From Candidatus Hydrogenedentota bacterium (GTDB lineage Bacteria > Hydrogenedentota > Hydrogenedentia > Hydrogenedentales > GCA-2746185), in the NCBI GenBank assembly GCA_046583315.1, contig JAYGCN010000105.1, positions 1-12,549 of the forward strand: a stretch of 12,549 bases of DNA, given 5' to 3'. Both the position numbers and the translations under genes were made by a program. The notes beneath the pieces were generated by a model. It ran no database searches. It worked only from the letters and a program-made list of their open reading frames with translations, and had not been told where the DNA came from. Of the stretch, positions 1 through 12,549 are shown one piece after another; position 1 is the stretch's first letter; every line of letters begins with the position of its first letter.

Positions 1-2
1 AG

Positions 3-872
3 ATCAAGGCGGGCGATCTGCTCGCGAAAACGCCGCGGCAGTTTAGCAAGACCAAAGATATTACGGGCGGTCTCCCGCGTGTTGCCGAGCTCTTCGAAGC
101 GCGTCAACCCAAGAATCCCGCTATCATCAGTCACATCGACGGAATCGTTGAACTCGGCGGAATATCCAAAGGCAAACGCGTCGTGAAAGTGCTTCCGCCA
201 GTCGGTAAAGAACGCGAATACACCATTCCGCCAGGCAAGCACTTGAACGTTCAGAGCGGTGACCGTATTACGGCCGGTCAGCAGCTCACCGATGGCCCGG
301 TTATTCCGAAAGACATCCTGGAAGTGCAAGGGGAAGATGCCTTGCGTAAATACCTGCTCGACGAAGTACAACAGGTGTATCGTCTCCAGGGCGTGCGCAC
401 CAACGACAAACACATCGAAGTCATCGTGCGTCAGATGCTGCGCAAAGTAAAAATCAAAGACGATCCAGGCGACACGCCGTTCCTCGCACACCAGGAAGTA
501 GACAAAATGCGCTTCCAGGAAGAAAACATGAAAACGCTGGAAAAAGGCGGACGTCCCGCCGAAGCCCAGCCGATTCTGCAAGGAATCACCAAGTCCGCCT
601 TGAGCACCGAAAGCTTCATCGCCGCAGCCTCCTTCCAACAGACCACACGTGTGCTGACCGAAGCCGCGCTGTCCGGTAAGAAGGATTACCTCAAAGGGTT
701 GAAGGAAAACGTGATCATTGGTCACCTCATACCAGCAGGTACAGGTTCCGCCCTCTACCAGAATACGCAAGTCACCATTCAGTCCGAAGCGATCGAAGAT
801 TTCACCTCGGATCTTGAAGTAGGTGGCACCGCGGGTATCCTTGATATCGAAGACGATGCCGGCGAAGCCTAA
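3..872 (+). CDS. rpoC: DNA-directed RNA polymerase beta' subunit, C-terminal part (5'-truncated by window)
   Basis: Frame is open from nt 3 ([34 protein letters not shown]). Conserved motifs [74 protein letters not shown] at 870-872. The ORF-track start at 183 is internal. Confidence 0.99.
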
Positions 873-892
873 GTCAAACAGATAGACCCAAT

Positions 893-930
893 GAGCCGGT
901 AATGATTCAATCGTTACCGGCTCTTTTTTT
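893..930 (+). terminator. Rho-independent terminator after rpoC
   Basis: 13-bp stem GAGCCGGTAATGA (893-905) / TCGTTACCGGCTC (911-923) with one G-U pair, loop TTCAA, then T7 (924-930). Confidence 0.93.
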
Positions 931-992
931 CAGAAAGTCTGCATAGCCACAGGAATAACAGTACGAACCAACAAGTTCTGAAGGAGATCGTA

Positions 993-1790
993 ATGAACAT
1001 CTGTATGGCCGGGGCCCTGGGCCGCATGGGACGACGCATACTCGAGCTTGCATCCGCAGACGAAAACATAGGCATCGGCGGAGCATTCGATCTGCCCGAG
1101 CGCGCCGGCGAAGTCGTTCACGTCGGACACGAAAGTGGAAACCCATCCGAAATCGCCCTGAGCGTCACCGCCACCGAAGCACTCAAAGAAGCCGACGTGC
1201 TCATCGATTTCACCATCGCCAGCGTGTGCATGGGTAACGTGCGCGCCGCAGCCGAAGCCGGAAAAGCCGTCGTGCTCGGCACCACCGGACTCTCCGACGA
1301 CGACAAAAAAGAACTCGAAATCCTCGCCCACAACATCCCCATCGTATTCGCGCCCAACTTCTCCATCGGCGTCAATCTGCTCTTCAAGCTCGTCGGAGAA
1401 GCCGCAGCCGTGCTCGGTCTCGATTACAATCCCGAAATAACCGAAATCCATCACAACCAAAAAGTCGACAGCCCCAGCGGCACCGCCGTACGCCTCGCCG
1501 AACGCGTCGCCGAAGGACTCGATCTCTCCTACGCCAGCCACACCCAACACGGCCGCCAAGGCATGGTCGGAAAACGCCCTGTAAAAGAAATCGGCATGCA
1601 CGCCCTGCGTGGCGGAGACGTCGCCGGAGAACACACCGTCGCCTTCATCGGCCAAGGCGAACGCGTCGAACTCACCCACCGCGCACACAACCGCGACAAC
1701 TTCGCCCGCGGAGCCCTCATCGCCGCCAACTACGCCTGGAACGCCGAACCCGGCCTCTACGACATGCAAGACGTGCTAGGCTTGAAGTAA
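993..1790 (+). CDS. dapB: 4-hydroxy-tetrahydrodipicolinate reductase
   Basis: N-terminal GALGRMG dinucleotide-binding motif, DVLIDFT, VVLGTTG, APNFSIGV, EIHHNQKVDSPSGTA signature, RGGDVAGEHTV. RBS AAGGAG at 981-986. Confidence 0.98.
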   Translation: MNICMAGALGRMGRRILELASADENIGIGGAFDLPERAGEVVHVGHESGNPSEIALSVTATEALKEADVLIDFTIASVCMGNVRAAAEAGKAVVLGTTGLSDDDKKELEILAHNIPIVFAPNFSIGVNLLFKLVGEAAAVLGLDYNPEITEIHHNQKVDSPSGTAVRLAERVAEGLDLSYASHTQHGRQGMVGKRPVKEIGMHALRGGDVAGEHTVAFIGQGERVELTHRAHNRDNFARGALIAANYAWNAEPGLYDMQDVLGLK

Positions 1791-1847
1791 GGACTATCTT
1801 ATCGCCGGGACACGAAGGGGCGGCGAGTCAGGGACGGGAGATTTAGA

Positions 1848-2222
1848 ATGCGAGTATTCGAGCAGAAGTTGGAAACGGGTAACGCATGTGAGGTTATCCG
1901 CGTGCGAAACGGTTGCATCCCTAACTACTACCTATTGGTGTTTCCAAAGGCGCAAGGAGAACCCTCATCGGAAGAGGTATCTGAGATGTTGAAATTGGGA
2001 ACCAACATAGCACGGGACCTCGCCAAGAAGTTCGTTGATGATGCCGAAGCCTTTACCATTCTATACAGCGGTTATAGTGCGAGACGCGAAAAAGGCTAGC
2101 ATGTTCACATTGTCCTATTAGGAAATAGCTGGCGAAAAACGTGGCTGTATCTCATTTTGGCGGGAAAAAATCTTGCGCAAGCACTAAGAATTCGGCCCGA
2201 CGATGCTCCGAGAGTTTCATGA
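1848..2222 (+). pseudogene. Small hypothetical protein (~124 codons) with degenerate HIT-like HxH motif, interrupted by in-frame TAG at 2097-2099
   Basis: RBS-like GGGAG before ATG 1848. After TAG the frame stays open for 40 codons (HVHIVLLGNSWRKTWLYLILAGKNLAQALRIRPDDAPRVS) to TGA 2220-2222, which overlaps the next ATG (ATGA). Context KG*HVHIV suggests an original W (TGG). The HIT-like call is tentative. Confidence 0.7.
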
Positions 2223-2821
2223 TGCTCAAGGAACGGTGGCTAAAACTCATGGAAAAGCTGACGCTAGGAGAGAATATTTCTTCTTTCGAGAACATACTGA
2301 GTAAGGACGACGAAAGACATCGACATTATCACACCGCTGAACATCTGACGAATGTACTTTCAGATCTGGACCGAGTTCGCGAATCCGCAGAATCGCCGGA
2401 AGAAATTGAAATGGCGTTATGGTTCCACGATGTCATCTATCGACCGTTTTCATCCACAAATGAGGAAGATAGTGCTAATGAGGCTCGTTTGTTTCTGGAA
2501 CACAACGGATGCGCACTGGAATTTATCGATAGAGTTTACGACCTCATAATGGCGACGATGCACACCACTCCAACGGGCACCAGCGATCATACGGATATCG
2601 ATTTAGCGATCCTTGGCAGCGACGAATCCCGCTACGCGGACTTTGAAACCGCTGTTCGAAAAGAATATCGATAGGTTCCCAATTTTTTATACCGGAAGAA
2701 GCGGAAAGAAATATTATCTTCGTTCTTGGCGCGTGAAAGGATCTTCGATAACGATCTACTCTTTCGAGAGCTTGAAAATAATGCTCGAACAAATCTCGAA
2801 CTGGCAATTGCGCGGCTGTAA
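2219..2821 (+). pseudogene. HD-superfamily metal-dependent phosphohydrolase (COG4339-like), interrupted by in-frame TAG at 2672-2674
   Basis: Motifs HRHYHTAEHL, ALWFHDVIY, NEEDSA, LIMATMH, DIDLAILG, VRKEY. After TAG the frame continues VPNFLYRKKRKEILSSFLARERIF...NARTNLELAIARL to TAA 2819-2821, matching the family C-terminus as I recall it (EY-x-W/H-VP...Y...R...L..FL.R..I...AR.NL). Likely start ATG 2219 or 2222, not 2141. Confidence 0.85.
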
Positions 2822-2854
2822 TTTCTTGACCCATCGCGTCTCTGCGTTAAAGAA

Positions 2855-3802
2855 TCATCCAAGCCCCAACAACCGCCGCGCATTTCCTCGGAATACTTTC
2901 TCCTTCACCTTGCGTGGAAGATGGTCCAGCGTCTCGCCGTACAACTCAAACTGCGGCACGCCTTGACCCGGTGCGAGGTAGTCGGTGCCGAAGAGCAGAC
3001 GGTCGGCGCGACGTTTTACGAATTCCGCGCCAAACTCGATGTCGCGGGAGATGGCATTTGCGCCGCTGCCCGCCGACAAGTCCCCGTAGACGTTTGGATA
3101 CTTATCCATCAGCCGATCAATCGCGCCGCCTGGGAAAACTTTCGTATCGGGATACTTTTGCAGGGTATCCTGTTTCGTGTCGCCGCTGATGGAGGCCCAC
3201 CAGCCCTGCGCGTGCCCGATGAATACGCCGTCCGGAATCTGACGCAACATGTTCTCCAGACCCGGCAATCCCGGCTTGTCCGTGTTGCGCGAATTGTCCA
3301 GATGAAACAGGACCGGGAATCCCACTTCCGCACAGGCCTTGAACAATTCCATGTTACGCGAATCATCGATCGCAACACCCGGTTTGTGTTCGCCAAATCC
3401 TTTCGCACCCGCATCCTGATATTTCTTCAACAGGTCCAGCTTAATCTTGTAATTCCCCAAATTAATCGTGCGCGGATCGATCGAACAAAACGGTATCAAG
3501 CGATCCCGATGCGCTTTCGTATGTTTCAGCACATAATCCGTACTAATCGGATGGTCCCACGACTCCGGCGAAATCAACGGCAACACCGCCGCCTGTGCAA
3601 TGTCCATCTCATCCATCCAGCGCAATAATCCATCCGCACCCAGCGGCTCGCGATTGCCCCATTCCTGACCGAGATGCGTGTGGATGTCGAAATATTTCCC
3701 TTTCGGTGCCGCATCAGCACGACGTCCGCCGAGCATCGCCGCCCCAACCGCTGCGGCTACTCCAATATTGAATCGTCTACGCGTTATCGATTTATCACTC
3801 AC
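2855..3802 (-). CDS. Tat-exported amidohydrolase-family (amidohydro_2-like TIM barrel) metal-dependent hydrolase
   Basis: Twin-arginine signal ITRRRFNIGVAAAVGAAMLGGRRADA. Metal motifs DIHTH, GFGEH, LFHLD, GHA, LLFGTDY; C-terminal GNARRLLG. GTG start with GGGAG RBS. Confidence 0.9.
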   Translation of the reverse strand: MSDKSITRRRFNIGVAAAVGAAMLGGRRADAAPKGKYFDIHTHLGQEWGNREPLGADGLLRWMDEMDIAQAAVLPLISPESWDHPISTDYVLKHTKAHRDRLIPFCSIDPRTINLGNYKIKLDLLKKYQDAGAKGFGEHKPGVAIDDSRNMELFKACAEVGFPVLFHLDNSRNTDKPGLPGLENMLRQIPDGVFIGHAQGWWASISGDTKQDTLQKYPDTKVFPGGAIDRLMDKYPNVYGDLSAGSGANAISRDIEFGAEFVKRRADRLLFGTDYLAPGQGVPQFELYGETLDHLPRKVKEKVFRGNARRLLGLG

Positions 3803-3817
3803 TGTTTTGCTCCCGAC

Positions 3818-6808
3818 TCAGTCCGTTTTCATCAAAAATGCAATCAAATCAGCCACGCCCTGATTGCCCAGACCCTCTTCCAGGTTCTCCGGCATAATCG
3901 AAAGGTCACTGCTGAACATCTCGCGTATGTTGAGGCGTAGCAGTGTGTCTTCCAGACCACCCGCGCGCTTCAAGGTCACACTCGTCGACGTCTCCGAATC
4001 CAGCAGTCCCGACAAAATCTGACCGTCCGTCGTTTCCACGGTAAAGTTCACATACTGCGGATTGATTTCCCGGTTCGGGTCAATCATATTCACCAAAATC
4101 GTCTCCGCACCCCGCTCAACCATTGTCGTCAGGTCCGGCCCCAACTGAAAACCAATCCCAGCAAACTGATGGCAACTCGAACACCGCTCTTCAAAAATCG
4201 CCTTACCCTTCGTCGGGTCACCTTGCATGGTCAACGCGGGTCGAAACGCAGCAATCATATTCTCCAGATACTCCGGCGAGGGTTGCGCAAACAGTTTCGC
4301 CGTCCGTTCACGAATCGTCGCATCAGAATGACTTCGCAACTGTTCCACACGCGTCGAAACGATGTTCGATCTCGCGAATTCATCCTCCTCAATCGCGTTC
4401 AGTACCGTCCCGATCCAGTTGGCCCGCGAAAACAACACCTCCAACGCCTCGCGACGCACAGGTGTGGTGAACGAAGACCACCGGCCCAGAATTTCCCCGG
4501 CAATCTCATCATCATCATACCCACGCAACGCGCCCAGCGCCGCCAATCGCACCTCCAAATGGGCGCTCGTGCCCAACGGTTCAAAGAAGAGGGGGCCGAC
4601 CATGTCGTAATCCGCAAGGCCCAGCGCCGAAAGCGCGTAGACATAGTCAACCGGTTTCTTCGACTCATCCTGCAAAATATCAGCCATGGTCTTGAGGTGC
4701 TGCTCCACAATCTCACCCACAACCGTGGACTCAGCGAACACAGCACGTGTCTCCGCGTTGGAGGGAACTTTATCCAAACCACTCAGCAGCTGACGTACCA
4801 CGGATTGCACGACGCGTTTTTGCTGCCCGGCCACTTCTTCGACGGCATCTACAACCACCCGAATTTCGTCCGCCCGCGCACCCGTACCCACCAGATTCGC
4901 CAATTGTCCCAGAAAATCTCGAGTCGCGCGATCATCGCCAGCAGAGCCCTCCCGTAACATCGTTGCGAGCACGTCACCCGCGCCACCCGTCAACGAACTC
5001 AACAACGCCAAACGCATCCAGGCATCATCGCCATCCGATGCAATCAAGGCAAGAAACGCGTCCGGAGGATTTTGCGCGTCGGGATGCTCGCCCAGCGTAA
5101 AGGCCAACTGATACCGCACCCGCACGGACGCGTCGTCCGCCATTTCCAACACACGTTTTCGAAGTGGGGCCGATGAGGGCAGCAACGGTTCCGAAAGTCG
5201 CAGCGCATGTTCACGCACCAACGCACGCTCATCGTTCAGCGCCGCGACCAGTTGTTCTGCAGTAATTGCTCCGTGATTCGATAAGGCCTGCAACACACGC
5301 ACCCGCGCATTTTTCGAAGAAATCTCCTTAGGTGCCTCAATCTCAACACCCACTTTCGAACGTTCATGCAGCAATCGCGCCGCCGTGTCATGATGCCACG
5401 CGTTCGGATGAATCAGATACGTCGCCAACTCGGAATCGGTTGCTTTTGCCAAATCCGGAACCTTAGGCTGTTCAAAATCTTCCGGTACGATACGATAGAT
5501 TCGTCCCCGATCAAAGCCCGCATTCAAGTCGATGTGTTTCTTGATCAGCGGCGGCAGACTCGCCGGGTGTTCAATCACCTCTCGATACATGTCCGCCACA
5601 TACAACGCGCCATCCGGCCCATTCGCGAACTGTACCGGTCGGAACCAATTATCCGTCGACGTGATAAATTCCTTCTTCTCATCAATCCGTTCACCCTTGA
5701 ATTCGATTCCGTCCGGAACGATCCGTTTTCGATGAATCAGGTTGCTCCCGACATCCGCAACGAACACCTGGCCCCGATATTCCTCCGGCCACGCATCACC
5801 TTTGTACACCGTAATCCCCGTCGCACTCGTGAAATACCCCGAGGCCGTACCACCCCCTTCAACAGGTCCGGGTACAATACCCTTCACCCGTAGTCGAGTC
5901 CGCACAATACGCCACGGCTCCACAGGACTCGTCCGGAAAACATCCGCCTGCGGTCCATCCACGGCAATACTCATCCGGGCACGCGGTGCCGCCAGATAGG
6001 GATTGCGCGCAATATAGCGATCCCGATACATAACCATCATCAAGTGATCACTGTTGTGGCAAATGAGTTTGTTGCCTTCCAGATCAAAGGTCAAGCCGTG
6101 TTGTCCGCCTCCACTCGTCGCTCGAAAATCACGTGTCGTCGGGTCGAAGGAAAAATCGCGACCGCCCACCGCCACCGGTTTTGTATCAGGCACATCCACC
6201 CGCGTAATCGTGCCGCCCGAAGAACTCGTCGCGCCATGAATGCGATTGTCCATGCCCCAATTGAACGAATTCAGCAAGCCCTGCACATTTCCGAGTCCGA
6301 AGCCCGTGTATACCTTCTCCAGGATGTCGGCGCGGTTGTCACCATCGGTATCCTTGAAATACCAGATGTCCGGCGGTACGGCCGCATACACTCCGCCGTC
6401 ATAACACGCCACCGCTGTTGGCCACGCCAGTCCATCCACGTACACATCACTCGTGTCATATACCCCATCGCCATCCGTATCTTCCAGCAGACGAATTGCG
6501 CCGATATTCTCATCACGCCGTTCCGAATACCCGCGCATTTCCACTACGAACATGCGCCCTTTCTCATCAAAAGCCATCGCAATCGGATCATGCACCAGCG
6601 GTTCTGCTGCCACCAATTCCATCTTGAATCCCGGCACGATTTGGAAGTCATCCAGCGTGTCGCCAGGCTCGGTGGGCGCAATCCGTGGAAGCTCACCCGC
6701 GTAATCCCGCTCCAGCGAATCATCCGATTCGTCCTGCGCAAATCCTGCCGTCACGAATCCAAAAAAACACAGAATCATTGATGCAATCTTGAAACTGTAT
6801 CCGTTCAT
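3818..6808 (-). CDS. PVC-type heme-binding CxxCH protein: sugar-dehydrogenase-like beta-propeller + HEAT-like repeats + C-terminal cytochrome c
   Basis: Sec signal (…TAGFA|QD). Propeller motifs GFKMELVAAEPLVHDPIAMAFDEKGRMFVVEM and FRPVQFANGPDGALYVADMYREVIEH. HEAT-like D....VR..A segments. GDPTKGKAIFEERCSSCH (heme motif 4169-4183), GPDLT, SIMPENLE. ATG overlaps the upstream TGA (ATGA 6805-6808). Confidence 0.92.
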   Translation of the reverse strand: MNGYSFKIASMILCFFGFVTAGFAQDESDDSLERDYAGELPRIAPTEPGDTLDDFQIVPGFKMELVAAEPLVHDPIAMAFDEKGRMFVVEMRGYSERRDENIGAIRLLEDTDGDGVYDTSDVYVDGLAWPTAVACYDGGVYAAVPPDIWYFKDTDGDNRADILEKVYTGFGLGNVQGLLNSFNWGMDNRIHGATSSSGGTITRVDVPDTKPVAVGGRDFSFDPTTRDFRATSGGGQHGLTFDLEGNKLICHNSDHLMMVMYRDRYIARNPYLAAPRARMSIAVDGPQADVFRTSPVEPWRIVRTRLRVKGIVPGPVEGGGTASGYFTSATGITVYKGDAWPEEYRGQVFVADVGSNLIHRKRIVPDGIEFKGERIDEKKEFITSTDNWFRPVQFANGPDGALYVADMYREVIEHPASLPPLIKKHIDLNAGFDRGRIYRIVPEDFEQPKVPDLAKATDSELATYLIHPNAWHHDTAARLLHERSKVGVEIEAPKEISSKNARVRVLQALSNHGAITAEQLVAALNDERALVREHALRLSEPLLPSSAPLRKRVLEMADDASVRVRYQLAFTLGEHPDAQNPPDAFLALIASDGDDAWMRLALLSSLTGGAGDVLATMLREGSAGDDRATRDFLGQLANLVGTGARADEIRVVVDAVEEVAGQQKRVVQSVVRQLLSGLDKVPSNAETRAVFAESTVVGEIVEQHLKTMADILQDESKKPVDYVYALSALGLADYDMVGPLFFEPLGTSAHLEVRLAALGALRGYDDDEIAGEILGRWSSFTTPVRREALEVLFSRANWIGTVLNAIEEDEFARSNIVSTRVEQLRSHSDATIRERTAKLFAQPSPEYLENMIAAFRPALTMQGDPTKGKAIFEERCSSCHQFAGIGFQLGPDLTTMVERGAETILVNMIDPNREINPQYVNFTVETTDGQILSGLLDSETSTSVTLKRAGGLEDTLLRLNIREMFSSDLSIMPENLEEGLGNQGVADLIAFLMKTD

Positions 6809-7740
6809 TCCGCCGCCTTCTCAATCGCACTCTGTAATTTCGCCAAATACTTCGGCACCGCTTCGTAGGGGTCAGGCGCACTCTCATATTCCAGCGCGAT
6901 ATACCCGCGATACCCGCCGTCCCGAAGAATCCGCACAACACGATCAATATCCGCTTCCTCACGACCCTTGCCATCGGGTTTCATGACTTCCACTTTAAGC
7001 TGAACATTCACGGCGTGGGGGACCATGCGCTCGATGTTGCCATAGGGGTCTTGGGAAAAGTTTCCCGTATCCAGATTCACTCCCAGCCATTCATGATCCA
7101 CCCCATCCACGATTTTCATCAACTCAACCGACGTTCCCGTCAGATATCCGTGATTCTCGATCGCCAAAAACACGCCCCGTTCCCCGGCATAATCACAGCA
7201 TTCCTTCATGCACTCGATAGACCACGTCAAGGCCTGGGCATCATCCACCTTCGCATGTTTATTGCCCGCGAAAATTCGAATCACCGGCGCACCGATCCGC
7301 ATCGAATGATCACACCACTTCTTCACATGATCGATTGACTCACGACGTACCGCCTCATTCAGGTGGCAAAAATCATTACGAATCGCCGTGCCCGAGATGT
7401 CCAGACCCAATCTGAACGCCTTGGCCTTCATCGAGTTCAAATACGCCGTATCCTCAGACGAAAAATAATACGACGTCGGCTCCACAGCACCCAGCCCCTG
7501 ATCGGCCACCCACTCAAACCAGTCATGCAGCGTAATCTTCCCCGGTTGACCATCATGCGGCAACACATTGCGAAACGAATACGCCGCCAGACTCGCCTTG
7601 ATGCCGATCGATTGCACGGCGCGCGTCGTTTTCGCCTCGACATCCGCCGAGGTTAAAAGTGTCGCGGCACCAAGCGCCGCCGTAGAAGCCAGGAACGTTC
7701 TACGATTTAGCTCCGTTTTTATGTGTGGTGTAGTGTTCAT
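6805..7740 (-). CDS. Tat-exported sugar-phosphate isomerase/epimerase family protein (xylose isomerase-like TIM barrel)
   Basis: Start reassigned to ATG 7740 (AAAGGGA RBS upstream; signal LNRRTFLASTAALGAATLL..VEA). Motifs YSFR, IRIFAG, LAIENHG, NLDTGNF, QLK, GYRGYIALEYE. Confidence 0.9.
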   Translation of the reverse strand: MNTTPHIKTELNRRTFLASTAALGAATLLTSADVEAKTTRAVQSIGIKASLAAYSFRNVLPHDGQPGKITLHDWFEWVADQGLGAVEPTSYYFSSEDTAYLNSMKAKAFRLGLDISGTAIRNDFCHLNEAVRRESIDHVKKWCDHSMRIGAPVIRIFAGNKHAKVDDAQALTWSIECMKECCDYAGERGVFLAIENHGYLTGTSVELMKIVDGVDHEWLGVNLDTGNFSQDPYGNIERMVPHAVNVQLKVEVMKPDGKGREEADIDRVVRILRDGGYRGYIALEYESAPDPYEAVPKYLAKLQSAIEKAAE

Positions 7741-7777
7741 CAGCCAATCCCTTTCGATGCATTCCATCCAACTATCG

Positions 7778-7806
7778 AGTATCGCCCATCCACCCCAGTC
7801 AGTCAA
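7778..7806 (-). promoter_or_regulatory. Putative sigma70 promoter for the minus-strand exported-protein operon
   Basis: On the minus strand TTGACT (7806-7801), 17-nt spacer, GATACT (7783-7778), ~38 nt upstream of ATG 7740. Confidence 0.5.
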
Positions 7807-7813
7807 GTGTCAT

Positions 7814-7843
7814 TTGTCACCGGAACCCCGAACTTGTCATAAT
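7814..7843 (+). promoter_or_regulatory. Putative sigma70 promoter for the transglutaminase-like gene (divergent)
   Basis: TTGTCA (7814-7819), 18-nt spacer, extended -10 TG-N-CATAAT (7835-7843). Confidence 0.55.
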
Positions 7844-7878
7844 AGGCAGTTCGTTCAAGAATAATGAGGAGCTCCATG

Positions 7879-8544
7879 ATGCTGCAGTACCCAGACCCCG
7901 AAACCTGTCTCGCCCGAAGCCAATTTATCGACAGTGACGCGCCCGAGATAGTGGAAGTCGTACAACGCCTTACAACCGCCGATCAGACACCCGCAGAAAA
8001 AGCGGTCATCCTGTTTAACTACGTGCGCGACAACGTCGAATACGAATTCACCATCCGAAACACCCCCAACGAATTCAAAGCCTCATTTACCCTAGGCGAT
8101 GGTCGCGGTTTTTGCGTGCGTAAATCATTGCTAGTGGCAGCACTCTGTCGTGCAGCAGGCATTCCCTCCGTCATCATTCTGTGCAACATGAAAGACATGT
8201 CCATTTCGCCGCGCGTCGTCGAAATGCTCGGTACCGATATCATGTACAACCACGGTCTCGCCGGTGTGCACCTTGAAGGCCACTGGTATCAGCTCGACGC
8301 CAGTCTTTCACCCGAACTCGTGGCCAAAAGACAATTTCGCCTCGTAGAATTCGACGGTCAATCCGATGCGTTGCAGGAAAATACGACGATGACCGGCGAT
8401 CCCCACATGGAATACGTCGCGTACCACGGCGCCTACATAGACCTTCCCTATAAACAGATGATGCAGGGATTCGACAAAGGGTATGCCAACGCCAATAAGG
8501 AAGAACTGGCCAAAATGGGCTGGCACAGCACCTTTGATATTTAG
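7879..8544 (+). CDS. Transglutaminase-like (Cys-His-Asp triad) protein
   Basis: LFNYVRD, GRGFCVRKSLLVAALCRAAGIPS (catalytic Cys), NHGLAGVHLEGHWYQLDA (His, Asp). AGGAG at 7867-7871 favours ATG 7879 (or 7876) over 7864. Confidence 0.88.
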   Translation: MLQYPDPETCLARSQFIDSDAPEIVEVVQRLTTADQTPAEKAVILFNYVRDNVEYEFTIRNTPNEFKASFTLGDGRGFCVRKSLLVAALCRAAGIPSVIILCNMKDMSISPRVVEMLGTDIMYNHGLAGVHLEGHWYQLDASLSPELVAKRQFRLVEFDGQSDALQENTTMTGDPHMEYVAYHGAYIDLPYKQMMQGFDKGYANANKEELAKMGWHSTFDI

Positions 8545-8578
8545 ATAAGTCTTTTAGTTTCAACAACTTAAAAACATA

Positions 8579-8607
8579 TTGACAGCTCTACAAATTTGAC
8601 GTATGTT
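8579..8607 (+). promoter_or_regulatory. sigma70 promoter of the tetR-R2lox-GMC operon
   Basis: TTGACA (8579-8584), 17-nt spacer, TATGTT (8602-8607), AT-rich upstream tract. Confidence 0.8.
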
Positions 8608-8631
8608 TACTTCACTCATGAGTTAGCTAAA
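8606..8631. promoter_or_regulatory. Putative TetR operator palindrome
   Basis: Perfect 10-bp core ACTCATGAGT (8614-8623) with imperfect flanks TTTAcTTc…tAgcTAAA, lying over the expected transcription start. Confidence 0.6.
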
Positions 8632-8644
8632 TGGAGACGCTGAG

Positions 8645-9289
8645 TTGTCCCTTACCATCACGAAAAAAGCTCGCCGGGGCCGCCCCAAAGATGCTGTCCG
8701 CTTTGAGGCAAAGAAGCGTGAAATCCTGCGTGCGGCCGCACAGTGTTTCGGAAAATACGGCTACGCACAAACGGACGTGAATCTTATCGCGCAAGACATC
8801 GGCATCACCAAAGGCACCATATACCACTATTTCGGCTCCAAAGAAAAACTGTTCTTCGAAACCGTCGATGCCGAAGCACTCCGCATGAAGACTGCCGTAC
8901 TCGAAGCAGCCGATCAACACGAAGATCCCCTCGAAGAAATGATCGCCGTTGTCCGGTCCTACCTCGAATTCGCAGAGGCCAATCCGCATTTCGTCGAACT
9001 GCTCATCGAAGAACGATCAACTTTCAAGGATCGTGATCAGCACACCTACTTTATCCATCGCGACACAACACTGCCGCGCTGGCATCGAAGCATCGAACTG
9101 CTCATTCAACAAGGCCGCGCGCGATCCTGCGATCCGGAAAAGTTCATCGCTGTACTTTCAGACACTCTCTACGGAACCATCTTCGCGAACTACTTTACCC
9201 ATAGCTCAATTTCTGCAGTTGAACAGTCAAATACCATAATCGACATCGTCTTTAACGGAATTTTAATCGAGCCACTATCAACGCACTAA
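8645..9289 (+). CDS. TetR/AcrR-family transcriptional regulator
   Basis: RRGRPK arm and HTH EILRAAAQCFGKYGYAQTDVNLIAQDIGITKGTIYHYFGSKEKLF. TTG start with GGAG at 8633-8636. Its TAA is part of the next gene's RBS (TAAGGAG). Confidence 0.95.
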   Translation: MSLTITKKARRGRPKDAVRFEAKKREILRAAAQCFGKYGYAQTDVNLIAQDIGITKGTIYHYFGSKEKLFFETVDAEALRMKTAVLEAADQHEDPLEEMIAVVRSYLEFAEANPHFVELLIEERSTFKDRDQHTYFIHRDTTLPRWHRSIELLIQQGRARSCDPEKFIAVLSDTLYGTIFANYFTHSSISAVEQSNTIIDIVFNGILIEPLSTH

Positions 9290-9299
9290 GGAGAACATC

Positions 9300-10205
9300 A
9301 TGGCCGTCACCACCAAAACCCGCGAATCCTACGTCACCACCACCCGAGGGCTGAATCGGGATCTTCCCCCGATGAAACTTTGGGAAAAGGCCAAAAAACT
9401 CGGCATCTGGAATCCCGCCGACATCGATTTTTCCCAAGACAAAAAAGATTGGGACGGCCTCAACGACAAACAACAGGAATACATCCTGACCCTGGCGTCA
9501 CAGTTCATCAGCGGCGAAGAAGCAGTCACGCTCGATTTGTTGCCCCTCATCAAAGCCGTCGCAGACGGGGGACACCTCGAAGAAGAAATGTTCCTCACGA
9601 CTTTTCTCTGGGAAGAAGCGAAGCACATCGACTTCTTTGATCGCGCGATCACCTCCTGGGGCGTGAATAAACAAAACCTGCACGAAAATTATCCACCCTC
9701 CTATATGAATTATTTTGGTGAACAATTCACCAGCACCATGGACGCGCTCAACCATAACCCCTCGCCCGAAAACATCGTGCGCGCCTCTGCCATGTACAAC
9801 ATGTCCATCGAAGGTATCCTGGCCGAGACCGGATATTTCATGTGGTACCAGCTCATGGACAGCGAGAACATCCTGCCCGGTGCACGCTCCGGCATTCGTA
9901 ACATTCAGCTCGACGAATCCCGACATATCGCCTACGGCGTGTGGTTGTGTTCGCGTATGGTTGCTGAACATCCCGATCTCTTCGACATCATCCCCGAAGT
10001 GATGGAAGACTGTTTTGCCTACTTCCAAAAATCAATCGGAGAAACCGAAGCCATCATCGGCGAATTGCCCTTCGACTACAGCTACGACGAAGTCATTGCC
10101 TTCGCTCAGTCGCAATACGCAAAACGTCTCGCACGTATCAAAAAAGCTCGAGGTCGTTCGCTTGAAGAACTTTACGACATGGGCGATGAACTCATCGCCG
10201 AATAG
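9300..10205 (+). CDS. R2-like ligand-binding oxidase (R2lox; Mn/Fe or Fe/Fe ferritin-like oxidase)
   Basis: Motifs PMKLWEKAKKLGIWNPADIDFSQD, GEEAVTLDLLP, WEEAKH, YNMSIEGILAETGY, DESRHIAYG. Ligands E73/E106/H109/E171/E206/H209 plus V76, Y166, Y179 sit at a constant +4 offset from Geobacillus kaustophilus R2lox numbering as recalled (E69/E102/H105/E167/E202/H205, V72, Y162, Y175). Confidence 0.93.
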   Translation: MAVTTKTRESYVTTTRGLNRDLPPMKLWEKAKKLGIWNPADIDFSQDKKDWDGLNDKQQEYILTLASQFISGEEAVTLDLLPLIKAVADGGHLEEEMFLTTFLWEEAKHIDFFDRAITSWGVNKQNLHENYPPSYMNYFGEQFTSTMDALNHNPSPENIVRASAMYNMSIEGILAETGYFMWYQLMDSENILPGARSGIRNIQLDESRHIAYGVWLCSRMVAEHPDLFDIIPEVMEDCFAYFQKSIGETEAIIGELPFDYSYDEVIAFAQSQYAKRLARIKKARGRSLEELYDMGDELIAE

Positions 10206-10223
10206 TACGCGCTGGCACTCTCT

Positions 10224-11858
10224 ATGGATTATGACTACGACTATATCGTGATCGGTTCAGGTTTCGGAGGCTCCGTCTCCGCATTACGCCTCTCCGAAAA
10301 AGGGTATACCGTCGCTGTGCTCGAAATGGGTAAACGTTTCAACGCCGAAGATTTTCCCAAAACCACCTGGCAGACCCACAAACACCTCTGGATGCCCAAG
10401 TTCAAACTCCACGGATTCTTCCAGATGACCTGGCTCAAAGACGTTCTCATCTTTCATGGCGCCGGAGTGGGAGGGGGCAGTCTCGTTTACGCGAATACGC
10501 TACTCGTGCCGCCCAGCAAAGCTTTCGAAGACGAGCGCTGGCCCGACGACGATTCGTGGGAACAAAAACTTGCACCCTTCTACGATCTCGCCAAATTCAT
10601 GCTCGGCGCCACGGTCGCGAAAAATATTTACCCTTCCGACGAAGCCCTGCGCGAACTTGTGGATGATGACATGGGCTGTGGCGATACCTTCAAAAAACAC
10701 ACCGTAGGCGTTTACTTCGGCGAGAGTGGAAAAGATGCCGAAGACCCCTACTTTGGCGGAGAAGGCCCCGAGCGCACCGGATGCATCGAATGTGGCGCCT
10801 GCATGATAGGGTGCCGCTACAACGCGAAAAATACCCTCGACAAAAACTACCTGCACCTCGCCGAAAATCGAGGCACTGAAATCATTCCCGAGACACGCGT
10901 CACCGACATCAAACCCCTCGAAGGCGGCGGCTACGAAGTCTTCACGGAGCAATCCACCAAACTCTTCAACAAACCCAAGCGCACACTCCGCGCAAAAGGC
11001 GTCGTCGTCTCCGCAAGCGTTCTCGGCACCGTAAACCTGCTCGCCAGATGCAAAGAAAACGGCAGCCTGCCCGACATCACCGACCGACTCGGCGATTACG
11101 TCCGCACCAACAACGAAGCTATCCTCTCCGTCACCGCCAAAGACAAAACAGTCGACTACGGTCGCGGCATCGCCATCACTTCCGGCGTGCACCCCGACGA
11201 CAACACGCACATCGAAATGGTGCGCTACGGCAGTGGTGCTGACTCCATGATAGGCCTCATGACACTGCTCACCGGAGCCGGAAAACCCTGGCCGCGTTGG
11301 CTGCGACTGCTCGGCAACATCACCAAACATCCTCTCACCTTCCTAAAGACCTTTGCCCCCTTCGGCTGGTCACGCAAAACCAGTATCGTACTTGTCATGC
11401 AGCCCCTCACCAGCCACCTCAGATTGCGCCTCAAAAATAAACTCTGGGGACGTCAACTCGACACCGAACTCACCCCCGGCCAGGACGTGCCTAAATACAT
11501 GCCACTCGCCAACGAAATCACTGAAAAACTCGCTGACAAAATGAACGGCACCCCACACAGCCTCACCCTCGAAGTCATCGGCAACACCTGCTCCACCGCG
11601 CACATCCTCGGCGGCGCCACCATGGGTCGCACACCCGAAGACGGTGTATGCGATCACAAAGGCCGCGTCTTCGGCTACGACAACCTCTACATCGCCGACG
11701 GCTCCATCGTGCCCGCCAACCTCGGCGTAAACCCCTCCCTCACCATCACCGCCCTCTCCGAATACGTCATGTATCACATCCCGGTGAATTCTGACGGCGA
11801 AGAAAAACCAGTGCCGAGGCCGAAACAGCGAAGCCTCTCAACCAACCTCACTAAATGA
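10224..11858 (+). CDS. GMC-family FAD oxidoreductase, cholesterol oxidase ChoD-like
   Basis: YDYIVIGSGFGGSVSALRLSEKGY (FAD), GAGVGGGSLVYANTL, DPYFGGEGPERTGCIECGACMIGCRYNAKNTLDKNYL, TAHILGG, DGSIVPANLGVNPSLTITAL. No signal peptide evident. Confidence 0.92.
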   Translation: MDYDYDYIVIGSGFGGSVSALRLSEKGYTVAVLEMGKRFNAEDFPKTTWQTHKHLWMPKFKLHGFFQMTWLKDVLIFHGAGVGGGSLVYANTLLVPPSKAFEDERWPDDDSWEQKLAPFYDLAKFMLGATVAKNIYPSDEALRELVDDDMGCGDTFKKHTVGVYFGESGKDAEDPYFGGEGPERTGCIECGACMIGCRYNAKNTLDKNYLHLAENRGTEIIPETRVTDIKPLEGGGYEVFTEQSTKLFNKPKRTLRAKGVVVSASVLGTVNLLARCKENGSLPDITDRLGDYVRTNNEAILSVTAKDKTVDYGRGIAITSGVHPDDNTHIEMVRYGSGADSMIGLMTLLTGAGKPWPRWLRLLGNITKHPLTFLKTFAPFGWSRKTSIVLVMQPLTSHLRLRLKNKLWGRQLDTELTPGQDVPKYMPLANEITEKLADKMNGTPHSLTLEVIGNTCSTAHILGGATMGRTPEDGVCDHKGRVFGYDNLYIADGSIVPANLGVNPSLTITALSEYVMYHIPVNSDGEEKPVPRPKQRSLSTNLTK

Positions 11859-11878
11859 GGATACGTAGTATCCTTCGA

Positions 11879-11918
11879 TTTCTCTTTGGTTCTTTCTCTT
11901 TTTCCAAAGAGAAAGAAC
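11879..11918. repeat. Pyrimidine/purine triple-block element (13-bp hairpin plus extra pyrimidine copy); possible bidirectional terminator or intrastrand triplex
   Basis: TTTCTCTTT (11879-11887), GGTTC, TTTCTCTTT (11893-11901), TTCC, AAAGAGAAA (11906-11914). Perfect stem GTTCTTTCTCTTT / AAAGAGAAAGAAC (11889-11918). Lies between convergent genes. Confidence 0.7.
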
Positions 11919-11924
11919 AAGCCC

Positions 11925-12344
11925 TTACTGCTTCTTGCACCGAATCAGAAACGAATCCGTGATCGCCTCACCACGAAAGTGACTAATTTCCTGATAGCCG
12001 GGATCCTGAATCAAACCCAGGAACGCTTTTTCATTCGGCCAATCCACAAAAAATACCAGGTCCGCGTCGAATTCCCCAATCATCGCCTGCGTCGGCACAT
12101 ACGACTCACCCGCGGTCCCGCCATGTTTCACTACAAACGGACTCGCCGCCGCAATATACTCCGCATACTTTTCCGCCCCGCCATCCTCCTTGAACCAAAG
12201 CGCATTCAACATCGAAAATGACTCATCCTTCGCAGCATCCGCCTCCTGAGCGGCAACGGGTCCGCCCTGCATCGGCAACATGCCCCCGAGGAAAATCCCG
12301 ATCACCATCATAGCCAGTACTGTAATCACTCGAAATTTAGACAT
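11925..12344 (-). CDS. Secreted DUF1330-like small alpha/beta protein
   Basis: MLNALWF…YAEYIAAASPFVVKHGG…FDADLVFFVDWPNEKAF…DPGYQEISHFRGEAI resembles DUF1330. N-terminal signal/TM segment ending VAA|QE. AAAGGAG RBS 7 nt before ATG 12344 favours it over TTG 12350. Confidence 0.8.
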   Translation of the reverse strand: MSKFRVITVLAMMVIGIFLGGMLPMQGGPVAAQEADAAKDESFSMLNALWFKEDGGAEKYAEYIAAASPFVVKHGGTAGESYVPTQAMIGEFDADLVFFVDWPNEKAFLGLIQDPGYQEISHFRGEAITDSFLIRCKKQ

Positions 12345-12434
12345 ACTCAAGCTCCTTTTGAGGTCCGCGTGGTAAAATCATTCTGTAATTTTATACTATA
12401 AACATTAGCGAATAAGGTATTTATTCAAAGTATA

Positions 12435-12463
12435 TTGACTTTCAGCGTAGAATAAGCTACATT
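12435..12463 (+). promoter_or_regulatory. sigma70 promoter for the gene starting at 12506
   Basis: TTGACT (12435-12440), 17-nt spacer, TACATT (12458-12463), AT-rich upstream. Confidence 0.7.
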
Positions 12464-12492
12464 ATGTAACTGACTGGTCAGTAATATAATGT
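12459..12492. promoter_or_regulatory. Long operator-like inverted repeat (TetR-type)
   Basis: ACATTATgTaACTGAC-TG-GTCAGTaAtATAATGT: 14 of 16 arm positions pair; overlaps the -10 and transcription start. Confidence 0.75.
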
Positions 12493-12505
12493 TGAGGCTT
12501 CAATA

Positions 12506-12549
12506 ATGTCTGCGGAAGTAACACCCAAAAGGGGTCGCCCGGTAAATAT
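12506..12549 (+). CDS. 5' end of probable second TetR-family regulator (truncated by window)
   Basis: MSAEVTPKRGRPVN…; RGRP arm typical of TetR N-termini; GAGG RBS upstream; preceded by a promoter and palindrome like those of the first tetR. Only 14 codons are visible. Confidence 0.6.
   Translation, partial: MSAEVTPKRGRPVN

Follow-up and report, generated by a model that had tools for sequence, protein, structure and literature searches.

The 12,549-nt stretch of Candidatus Hydrogenedentota DNA analyzed here (the window) harbors three plus-strand genes in a tight row, which encode a TetR-family regulator, an R2lox protein and a ChoD/SlfH-type GMC flavoprotein and which, judged from their layout, are likely co-transcribed as one TetR-repressed unit. 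On balance, we favor reading this unit as a module of a hydroxylase and an alcohol dehydrogenase, a variant of the Geobacillus cluster reported in 2024. Together with its counterpart in Anaerolineae, the window unites two poorly understood protein families in a small, expressible and assayable unit. The first-pass annotation had already suggested a regulated two-enzyme module for lipid oxidation, and with R2lox acting first this is the best reading. However, the unit is not self-contained as assumed there: it has no gene for a reductase, a ferredoxin, an aldehyde dehydrogenase or a ligase, and a transglutaminase-like gene lying upstream is probably part of it.

Gene layout and control elements

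The TetR gene (8645-9289, plus strand, 214 aa) has a TTG start with a GGAG 8 nt upstream, and its product reaches the cut-off of no named TetR subfamily model. It is followed by the genes of R2lox (9300-10205, plus strand) and of the GMC flavoprotein (10224-11858, plus strand, 544 aa), with gaps of exactly 10 and 18 nt, the latter showing no evident ribosome-binding sequence. TetR orthologs are also found immediately 5' of R2lox in the loci L044 (40%) and L063 (57%). The sigma-70-type promoter-like site TTGACA-17-TATGTT (8579-8607, plus strand) matches the consensus in 10 of 12 positions, which taken alone is at chance level (11 sites in the window versus 9.0 +/- 3.1 in shuffles), and matching geometry is present in the orthologous locus L063. 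Directly past the -10 box lies an operator-like palindrome (8606-8631, 79% complementary) with a 14-bp core (8612-8625, 6/7 pairing), which is a likely site of autorepression by TetR. A homologous palindrome occupies the equivalent position past the -10 box of the L063 ortholog, and by eye a palindrome also stands immediately 5' of four more related TetR genes (L044 and the own contigs C125, C285 and C40). In a near-identical strain from run X2, a single contig carries C>A at 8613, which renders the core fully palindromic, and G>A at 8605, which brings the -10 box nearer to the consensus. Past the GMC stop and ahead of a convergent DUF1330 gene, two hairpins (11857-11875, 8 pairs; 11889-11918, 13 pairs, -16 kcal/mol) likely mark the transcription end at 11857-11918. 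Promoter-like site, operator palindrome, gaps and terminal hairpins, as previously noted, are all confirmed in the sequence. Moreover, independent assemblies cross both junctions, with X2 contigs bridging 8401-9917 as well as 9992-10579 and a contig of X11 bridging 10181-10519, so that the arrangement is real and no assembly artifact.

The unit may extend further in the 5' direction, because a transglutaminase-like gene on the same strand ends 34 nt 5' of the -35 box with no terminator in between. This gene (7864-8544, plus strand, PF01841) encodes 226 aa and has a promoter-like site of its own (7814-7843, plus strand), with only a 10/12 consensus match and a TG before the -10 box, from which read-through into the TetR unit is possible. 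Over about 200 aa, the protein is 32% identical to the product of a GMC-CYP153 operon gene and 28% to that of a TetR-R2lox operon gene, and all three further plasmid contexts examined are alkane or acyl-CoA clusters. Among 41 genomes the gene is present in G000 only. The protein is likely a Cys-His-Asp hydrolase and probably an accessory member of the module.

Identity of the two enzymes

R2lox passes the curated models NF006202 (324 bits, cut-off 315) and NF006200 (246 bits, cut-off 194) and aligns to 7qbp, 3ee4 and 4hr0, whereas all class I RNR beta models fail (best 48, cut-off 237). A phenylalanine at the radical-tyrosine position is a hallmark of R2lox and is found here as the invariant F113; the cross-link residues V76 and Y166 are present in the sequence alignment. 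The metal ligands E73, E106, H109, E171, E206 and H209 are invariant in 32 of 32 aligned sequences. There is no PF02867 match, and hence no R1 subunit partner, in the genome, which is 96.7% complete (control 12/14). To our knowledge, structural work on R2lox has gone on for over a decade, while the substrate is unsettled and no electron donor is known. The designation as an orphan oxidase nevertheless goes too far given the 2024 Geobacillus cluster, as alkane loss was reported for lysate containing GkR2loxI and a hydroxylase/alcohol dehydrogenase/aldehyde dehydrogenase route, of the same pathway logic, was proposed (PMC10867098). The evidence for alkane activity is weak and comes from this one study, which used crude lysate, in its accessible part measured substrate loss alone and found the activity largely retained in a metal-ligand mutant (PMC10867098). 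Since the pathway logic is already in print, the surprise of our reading is limited.

The nearest solved fold of the GMC flavoprotein is cholesterol oxidase (TM 0.69, 21-23% identity), with whose His/Asn pair the catalytic residues H460 and N503 align, followed by 6a2u and 7w2j (TM 0.63-0.68, 16-18% identity). The substrate-domain residues 308-422, the region in which the isomerase base Glu361 would be sought, gave no alignment in the profile search; an amphipathic stretch spans residues 351-368. Class I cholesterol oxidases are secreted and bear a signal peptide; the GMC protein has none, its FAD-binding strand beginning at residue 5, and with 645 bits it stays under the cut-off of 850 of the cholesterol oxidase model NF058674. 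With 40-49% full-length identity to 33 plasmid records it fits the ChoD/SlfH-type subfamily, and its database matches comprise at least 8000 proteins. The first-pass annotation overlooked a CxxCxxCxxxC motif (C187, C190, C193, C197), which is invariant in 52/52 and 8/8 aligned sequences and absent from solved cholesterol oxidases. The spacing of C187, C193 and C197 (6 and 4) equals that of C212, C218 and C222 of Burkholderia glucose dehydrogenase (GDH), which ligate a 3Fe-4S surface cluster that exports electrons (PMC6719666). Together with weak matches to 4Fe-4S ferredoxins (best E 0.016), this leads us to predict that the four cysteines ligate an Fe-S cluster. The motif also occurs in one unrelated GMC protein of the same genome. 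From its gene context, the flavoprotein is likely a long-chain alcohol dehydrogenase and probably not a sterol oxidase. Whether ChoD-type "cholesterol oxidases" in general are Fe-S long-chain alcohol dehydrogenases we regard as evenly balanced.

Recurrence and neighborhoods of R2lox and GMC genes

Among 381 genomes of one Anaerolineae order, R2lox is present in 39, the GMC gene in 194 and both in 30. In six of these 30 (G966, G894, G924, G930, G914 and G1002), R2lox lies directly 5' of the GMC gene on one strand and within about 50 nt, with an internal stop in R2lox of G1002; a metagenome contig (L094) carries the pair as well, and in G888 an R2lox remnant precedes the GMC gene. In quick trees, the R2lox and GMC proteins of the Anaerolineae pairs group apart from those of the window (SH-aLRT 100). 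A lack of co-localization in other genomes, named earlier as grounds for rejecting the module, is thus not what is found, because the neighborhood survey proposed along with it shows the pair recurring in a second phylum. Linkage is indirectly indicated by five R2lox/GMC pairs of close Hydrogenedentota relatives (76-93% R2lox identity), in which the longest contigs of both genes have the same size (3673, 5211, 6715, 70244 and 189553); no TetR match shares the sizes 6715, 70244 or 189553. The sequence of a diverged strain in X2 continues from R2lox into the GMC start. The complete TetR-R2lox-GMC unit was seen whole only in the species group of the window.

The pairing is optional and points to a shared pathway instead of an obligatory partnership, since the two genes, where both are present, are mostly unlinked: this holds for 24 of the 30 Anaerolineae-order genomes and for all five other Hydrogenedentota genomes with both genes, including G001 of the same genus. 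A first survey found the GMC gene adjoining one of 107 R2lox loci (79 of which extend 2 kb or more on the downstream side), and it is absent from 41/41 R2lox flanks of the class sample and from 10/10 short Gemmatimonadota loci. With the scoring limited to 10 candidates in each genome, no ChoD/SlfH-type GMC was detected in 33 of 39 R2lox-bearing Hydrogenedentota genomes; conversely, R2lox was undetected in 164 of the 194 GMC-bearing Anaerolineae-order genomes. The GMC gene is kept where R2lox is decayed or absent (G888, G1002, G948, G1008, G867, G936).

The neighbors of R2lox elsewhere are mainly unrelated genes. Of 16 plasmid records with R2lox five were examined; the cluster includes an alcohol dehydrogenase in four of them, three of which also have a ferredoxin and reductase. 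Small ORFs with a ferredoxin or rubredoxin motif stand near five of 116 long-flank R2lox loci, three of them in Rhodococcus, and none at R2lox-GMC loci. Half of the 10 plasmid GMC records examined out of 33 have an alkyl-oxidation neighbor, among them one row of GMC, ferredoxin, CYP153 and reductase and contexts with an aldehyde dehydrogenase, in two cases also an alkyl sulfatase; the other half is uninformative. Most Anaerolineae GMC neighbors are uninformative as well, apart from an aldehyde dehydrogenase after the gene in two loci and a 3-hydroxyacyl-CoA dehydrogenase before it in three. In G914, the pair appears by eye to be flanked by thiolase and acyl-CoA dehydrogenase genes.

Proposed pathway and comparison with known systems

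A lipid ligand, possibly a fatty aldehyde or acyl-CoA, would relieve TetR autorepression, whereupon R2lox would use O2 to introduce a hydroxyl group into a long alkyl chain and the GMC flavoprotein would convert the resulting alcohol to the aldehyde, with the putative Fe-S cluster relaying electrons from FAD to an external acceptor. Candidate substrates are n-alkanes, branched or isoprenoid chains and the alkyl moieties of ethers, esters or waxes. Genes for an electron donor to R2lox, for an aldehyde dehydrogenase and for a ligase would be located elsewhere, and the aldehyde dehydrogenases of the genome lie on other contigs. We infer the role of R2lox from the 2024 Geobacillus result and from the Rhodococcus operons with ferredoxin and reductase, whereas that of the GMC protein follows from its gene context, as it takes the slot of AlkJ2 in CYP153 operons.

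It is conceivable, though unlikely, that the GMC gene merely joined an older TetR-R2lox pair and that both enzymes, despite co-transcription, act on different molecules. Both genes may stem from a broad lipid-catabolic pool drifting into shared clusters, as the G914 flanks also suggest, deeper branches (L044, L063) have TetR-R2lox without GMC, the genes are mostly apart, and GMC outlasts R2lox. However, in two phyla whose genes group separately the order and strand agree and the gaps do not exceed about 50 nt, and other partners fill the missing slot exactly, namely an alcohol dehydrogenase beside R2lox and CYP153 beside GMC. We consider it quite improbable that the GMC protein functions as a genuine 3-hydroxysteroid oxidase, with R2lox as the hydroxylase of a sterol side chain. 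Nearest fold, aligned H/N pair, a TetR-linked CYP51-like P450 in the genome, SCP2-type genes near R2lox elsewhere and the source label "cholesterol oxidase" of the homologs fit such a sterol module, but in ChoD-type proteins this annotation rests on disputed evidence. Definitive evidence for mycobacterial ChoD as cholesterol oxidase is reported to be lacking (PMC11060060). The earlier hint at sterols is further weakened by the missed NF058674 cut-off, the four-cysteine motif and the absent signal peptide; moreover, none of the 10 plasmid GMC contexts is annotated as a steroid cluster, and KshA has no match in the genome, a weak test as no control genome reached the cut-off.

A closed loop, in which the Mn/Fe site of R2lox receives the two alcohol-derived electrons back from the GMC protein via a (4Fe-4S) cluster of the latter and alkane and O2 yield aldehyde and water without NADH, ferredoxin or reductase, appears more doubtful still. 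By our reckoning the electron count balances, the motif resembles the electron-exporting cluster of GDH (PMC6719666), a protein partner was proposed for a positive patch of R2lox (PMC9314684), and R2lox-GMC loci have no small ferredoxin- or rubredoxin-motif ORF, whereas the Rhodococcus R2lox operons have ferredoxin and reductase. But the pair does not stand out by this absence, because unpaired R2lox genes equally have no ferredoxin nearby. Moreover, each enzyme mostly occurs in genomes in which the other was undetected, and the motif is common to the whole GMC subfamily and also present in the unrelated GMC protein. Least credible is the reverse order considered earlier, in which GMC supplies R2lox with an aldehyde (or H2O2) to act on in the manner of an aldehyde-deformylating oxygenase (ADO). 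R2lox shares its fold with ADO (E 8e-4) and binds fatty acids alike (PMC9314684), but this order is disfavored because two R2lox proteins are reported to be without aldehyde-deformylating activity (PMC9314684, PMC10867098). Furthermore, R2lox clusters include aldehyde dehydrogenase and CoA ligase, which suggests oxidation onward to the acid.

The hydroxylase-alcohol dehydrogenase module predicts that R2lox makes a long-chain alcohol and that the GMC protein oxidizes it and carries an Fe-S cluster. If true, this would give product-linked support to the weak alkane claim of 2024, amend a widespread annotation and point to uncultured marine Hydrogenedentota as users of hydrocarbons or waxes, and a closed loop, if real, would reveal the redox partner that has been lacking for an R2lox. 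No paper in the literature searched pairs R2lox with GMC, or an R2-like ligand-binding protein with cholesterol oxidase.

The closest system is that of GkR2loxI (GK2771) of Geobacillus kaustophilus HTA426 (PDB 4hr0), put forward as a Mn/Fe alkane monooxygenase, which has the same cross-link residues and metal ligands (E69, E102, H105, E167, E202, H205; numbering of PMC10867098). Its cluster likewise has a neighbor that would oxidize the alcohol, with a proposed route from alkane via alcohol to aldehyde, and is large, with separately annotated genes for an alcohol dehydrogenase, an aldehyde dehydrogenase, a ligase and beta-oxidation (PMC10867098). The window instead has a single four-cysteine GMC protein under TetR, the rest of the pathway missing; its candidate alcohol dehydrogenase is of another family, so that it would work alike but is no copy. 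SlfH of the slfCHSL operon of Psychrobacter pP62BP1 is 41% identical over its full length, has the same four cysteines and H/N pair, and is predicted to convert dodecanol to dodecanal (PMC3346939, PMC10779009). The operon, in the accessible account tested as a whole, confers SDS breakdown and is induced by lauryl aldehyde (PMC10779009), but there an alkyl sulfatase supplies the alcohol and the regulator is of the AraC type. By database annotation, R2lox proteins with 35-39% identity also have an alcohol-oxidizing neighbor on Rhodococcus plasmids (NDMA-dependent ADH, ferredoxin reductase, ferredoxin, R2lox, then ALDH, SCP2, CoA ligase and mce) and on a Mycobacterium plasmid (TetR, R2lox, ligase, ADH, BtrH and transglutaminase-like), the latter sharing TetR and the transglutaminase-like gene with the window. 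These operons encode an ADH of the NDMA type or a chain of ferredoxin and reductase, neither of which exists in the window. The pairing of a hydroxylase and an alcohol dehydrogenase is known from alkB-alkJ, AlkJ being a GMC protein of another subfamily. The same logic is seen in the row of ferredoxin, P450, AlkJ2 and reductase of Alcanivorax borkumensis (PMC6850023). On the Rhodococcus plasmid pR8L1, a 45-46% identical GMC gene heads a row of ferredoxin, CYP153, reductase and transglutaminase, whereas in the window the hydroxylase would be R2lox. Class I cholesterol oxidases (1coy, 1b4v) share the fold, FAD motif and H/N pair with the GMC protein, which differs by its low identity (21-23%), extra four-cysteine motif and missing signal peptide. 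It is 42% identical to the product of a gene flanked by guaB and guaA in Tsukamurella, which we take to be the choD position. The unit has no hitchhiker or multiheme cytochrome subunit genes, the GMC neighbors being R2lox and the convergent DUF1330 gene. The three-cysteine spacing is shared with the FAD glucose dehydrogenase of Burkholderia (6a2u) and the fructose dehydrogenase of Gluconobacter (7w2j), whereas in the GMC protein of the window a fourth cysteine completes a ferredoxin-type motif.

Gene row and control region

The TetR gene (8645-9289), the R2lox gene (9300-10205) and the GMC gene (10224-11858) all have + orientation, 10 nt separating TetR from R2lox and 18 nt R2lox from GMC, and the unit ends at two hairpins, which confirms the tight row described in the first-pass annotation. 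Both gene junctions are bridged by contigs from the sequencing runs X2 and X11, and therefore the row is no chimera. The window is the entire contig C136 of an assembly of 4.65 Mb. At least half of the window's words occur in three runs; these belong to two studies and are all metagenomes of marine or seawater origin, and no RNA run is listed among the runs with the window. For both enzymes the nearest named homologues bear the label Candidatus Hydrogenedentota. The TetR protein passed no NCBIfam cut-off and matched no solved structure at E 1e-12, and an ATG at 8631 was ruled out as its start, as it is out of frame.

A promoter-like site at 8579-8607 reaches 10 of 12 in a consensus scan. Since 11 such sites occur in the window versus 9.0 expected, the promoter scan by itself is no proof, and promoter and terminator scans taken alone are not above chance in the window. 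Thus, of the promoter with operator palindrome that had been proposed, site and palindrome are both present, but the promoter score carries no weight of its own. A homologous palindrome lies immediately 3' of the -10 box at the TetR orthologue of L063, a TetR-R2lox locus, and an upstream palindrome is also found at four further related TetR genes. In a near-identical strain in run X2 (one contig), two changes fall here, of which that at 8605 gives a better -10 box and that at 8613 makes the 14-bp core fully palindromic.

Upstream, 34 nt separate the -35 box from the end of a transglutaminase-like gene (7864-8544, + strand); this interval contains no terminator, and the gene is probably part of the module. 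Its product is 32% and 28% identical to those encoded in a plasmid row with the P450 CYP153 and in a Mycobacterium TetR-R2lox operon, respectively; it has no solved relative, and its exact sequence is absent from the protein collection. Only the genome of the window, out of 41, has the gene. Among 90 plasmid records with the gene, three more were inspected, two chosen as known alkane degraders and one as control, and all three place it in alkane or acyl-CoA clusters. Transglutaminase-like and BtrH-domain genes occur together in actinobacterial alkane/acyl-CoA plasmid clusters (L221:5356-8439, L310:13416-15178, L316:5907-7660, L317:6028-10616).

Several further genes were recorded in the window and its genome. 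Positions 1-7806 begin with the rpoC end and its terminator (893-923) and dapB, and contain two short ORFs without assignment, at 1848-2099 and 2141-2674, the latter resembling a truncated HD-type protein, as well as a minus-strand row encoding a Tat-type TIM-barrel protein, a PVC-type CxxCH heme protein (996 aa) and an amidohydrolase. A DUF1330-like protein with a signal-peptide-like N-terminus is encoded at 11925-12350 and has six further matches in the genome. Within 12435-12549, a strong palindrome (12459-12492, 88%) precedes the start of a second TetR gene at 12508. This gene (218 aa, 31% identical to the TetR of the R2lox row) is completed by contig C285 (66976-67729), which overlaps the last 141 nt of the window, and therefore the window is extendable. 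Related TetR genes head further clusters of lipid type: one of alcohol dehydrogenase, thioesterase and CoA-transferase genes with a divergent flavin monooxygenase (C125:3462-9589), one encoding a pair of proteins, each about 2,400 aa long, that by eye are polyketide/PUFA synthase-like (C40:15883-31390), and one with a CYP51-like P450 (C294:479-2640); the operator on C40 is nearly the same as that on C285.

R2lox and the cysteine motif of the GMC protein

The R2lox protein scores 324 bits with the model NF006202 (cut-off 315). Its six metal ligands, together with V76, Y166 and F113, have aligned counterparts in solved R2lox proteins and do not vary in any of the 32 sequences compared. That it serves as a ribonucleotide reductase beta subunit was rejected based on the curated-model scores and because no class I/II large subunit was found in the 96.7% complete genome. 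A 764-aa frame there holds a weak NrdD-family match only (C172:16981-18213). C16/C18 hydroxy fatty acids are reported to co-purify with R2lox, which may require a protein partner, and aldehyde-deformylating activity is described as absent in two R2lox cases (PMC9314684). Lysate with GkR2loxI removed C10-C22 alkanes, and its gene is located with alcohol and aldehyde dehydrogenase genes; however, activity was measured as substrate loss only, and a double ligand mutant is reported to retain most of it (PMC10867098). R2lox, called an orphan before, is therefore not quite an orphan, but its function is not solved either.

A second, distant R2lox (39-40%) is encoded at C46:25482-26168, convergent with DtxR-like metal regulator and ABC transporter genes and with no GMC near. 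At L049, L051 and L064, loci from a single genus of the family and from a metagenome contig, R2lox is preceded on the same strand by genes for an electron-transfer flavoprotein and for a CCG/4Fe-4S membrane oxidoreductase, which are candidates for another electron source for R2lox. FadL/TodX-type outer-membrane channel genes adjoin R2lox in two Hydrogenedentota genomes (L046:9675-10991, L054:7238-8467).

For the GMC protein, called ChoD-like before, the predicted structure is confident (pLDDT 91.8) and nearest to cholesterol oxidases (TM 0.69, 21-23% identity), followed by fructose and glucose dehydrogenases (TM 0.63-0.68); the catalytic pair corresponds to H460 and N503 in the alignment. Its score of 645 lies below the cholesterol oxidase cut-off of 850, and a four-cysteine motif, C187-x2-C190-x2-C193-x3-C197, had been overlooked. 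For mycobacterial ChoD itself, definitive proof as cholesterol oxidase is reported missing (PMC11060060). All 52 close and all 8 distant homologues compared keep the motif unchanged; it is not present in solved cholesterol oxidases and is a subfamily trait also found in an unrelated GMC of the same genome. Since the distances between three of the four cysteines equal those between the 3Fe-4S ligands in the Burkholderia glucose dehydrogenase, in which a surface cluster carries electrons out from FAD (PMC6719666), an Fe-S cluster is predicted from the sequence. A short-segment search gave no alignment reaching the cysteines of glucose or fructose dehydrogenases. The protein has no signal peptide; residues 351-368, which hold five of the six windows of highest hydrophobic moment, would suit membrane contact. 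When a complex was predicted from alignments of GMC (residues 1-525) and R2lox (residues 5-301), the score was 0.02 versus a mark of 0.32, which gave no answer.

Distribution of the R2lox-GMC pair

Among 135 Hydrogenedentota genomes, 39 have R2lox, seven have GMC and six have both, which are linked in the genome of the window only. In G001, of the same genus, each lies mid-contig with different neighbours, and G006 and L063 have TetR-R2lox without GMC. Relatives closer than these are represented by database proteins only, of which five R2lox/GMC pairs (76-93% R2lox identity) have identical longest-contig sizes within each pair, three of them below 7 kb, which points indirectly to linkage in close relatives; for three of these five sizes there was no TetR match. 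Directly, linkage was seen in a diverged strain in X2 (one record).

A survey of R2lox homologues for adjacent ChoD-like genes, as suggested earlier, had a divided outcome. In its first round, GMC adjoined R2lox at one of 107 loci (L094, a metagenome contig), the metagenome part being the best 80 of 528. The pair did recur in 381 genomes of one order, to which L094 led, within the class of G041 (record titled Anaerolineae): 39 have R2lox, 194 GMC and 30 both, and R2lox is directly 5' of GMC in six of the 30, once with a stop inside R2lox. The other 24 were judged on flanks (21) or by contig number only (3). GMC was found on none of 41 R2lox flanks in a class sample of 251 genomes, which overlaps the order sample, nor at 10 short R2lox loci from the phylum of G043; a single-protein scan of genome contigs gave 11 loci, none informative. 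The class-level GMC search (28 of 251 genomes, only five candidates scored per genome) probably counted too low, since the order-level search with a nearer query gave 194 of 381, and the 13-genome class overlap was therefore left out of co-occurrence and the R2lox flanks checked instead. Co-occurrence (30 genomes versus 19.9 expected in the order; R2lox in 6 of 7 GMC genomes versus 39 of 135 in Hydrogenedentota) is not relied on, because related genomes do not count as independent cases and the two enzymes may just mark aerobic lifestyles.

In quick trees, the R2lox of the window groups with the unlinked ones of G001, G006 and L063 (100), five of the Anaerolineae pairs fall into a single set (87) that does not include G914, and the GMCs from Anaerolineae branch separately from that of the window (100). 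On this placement, the joining has at least two origins or is old with frequent loss. By rough estimate, chance makes a given gene the next neighbour on the same strand in about 2 in 10,000 cases, so that chance is an unlikely cause of a second origin in some 35 genomes. Several relatives keep GMC after R2lox loss, and G888 retains an R2lox remnant 5' of an intact GMC (L275:8272-8421). The link is real, yet optional. Decay is also seen as an R2lox with internal stop (L272:2-568, G1002) and a two-piece TetR before R2lox (L288:7904-8441, G327). In many L094-like Anaerolineae loci (L270-L282, seven scanned), a YjbR-family gene of about 120 aa lies 3' of GMC, with or without R2lox.

Proposed pathway, alternatives and known systems

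R2lox matched 16 and GMC 33 plasmid records. Three of five R2lox records inspected are Rhodococcus plasmids in which genes for alcohol dehydrogenase, ferredoxin reductase, ferredoxin and R2lox directly follow one another, with aldehyde dehydrogenase, SCP2 and CoA ligase near; one, from Mycobacterium, has TetR-R2lox-ligase-alcohol dehydrogenase-BtrH-transglutaminase, and the haloarchaeal one is uninformative. Among 10 GMC records inspected, GMC heads a ferredoxin-CYP153-reductase-transglutaminase row in one and adjoins aldehyde dehydrogenase in four, two of them with alkyl sulfatase; five are without information. Anaerolineae GMCs have aldehyde dehydrogenase next in two cases and 3-hydroxyacyl-CoA dehydrogenase before in three, besides many unrelated neighbours. 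The genome of the window has no CYP153 orthologue (best match 31%) and two PF00487 matches, which may be AlkB or desaturase proteins.

Mainly because at other loci each enzyme is accompanied by a functional substitute of its partner, we lean, with some reserve, towards a TetR-repressed R2lox hydroxylase and a GMC alcohol dehydrogenase acting in consecutive steps on a long alkyl chain. TetR would keep its own promoter repressed as long as no lipid intermediate is bound. R2lox would hydroxylate the chain with O2 and two electrons, supplied by a donor whose gene would lie elsewhere, and GMC would convert the alcohol to the aldehyde, its electrons leaving via the predicted Fe-S cluster. Aldehyde dehydrogenases, which are encoded on other contigs, and beta-oxidation would complete the route. 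It is unlikely that R2lox and GMC are clustered without catalysing consecutive steps, and the reverse order of the two steps seems highly improbable. A sterol module, for which the TetR-linked CYP51-like P450 of the same genome speaks, is improbable in our estimate. We also doubt strongly that GMC and R2lox form a closed electron loop. Its appeal lies in a balanced electron count and in the absence of small electron carriers close to all paired loci, but just 5 of 116 R2lox loci in general have such a carrier close by, and in most R2lox-bearing Hydrogenedentota no GMC was detected.

As had been supposed, the pairing appears uncharacterised: no paper joining R2lox with GMC, or an R2-like ligand-binding protein with cholesterol oxidase, was found in literature that largely leaves subscription journals uncovered, and, among 20 of the 45 papers listed for ChoD and iron-sulfur terms, no title concerns ChoD with such a cluster. 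Both the pairing and the proposed Fe-S cluster look undescribed. The alkane-to-aldehyde pathway logic is already published for Geobacillus. The plasmid GMC-ferredoxin-CYP153-reductase row mirrors the ferredoxin-P450-AlkJ2-reductase operon reported for Alcanivorax (PMC6850023). Furthermore, the Psychrobacter homologue of GMC is slfH, for which long-chain alcohol oxidation is predicted and whose operon is reported to confer SDS breakdown and to respond to lauryl aldehyde (PMC3346939, PMC10779009).
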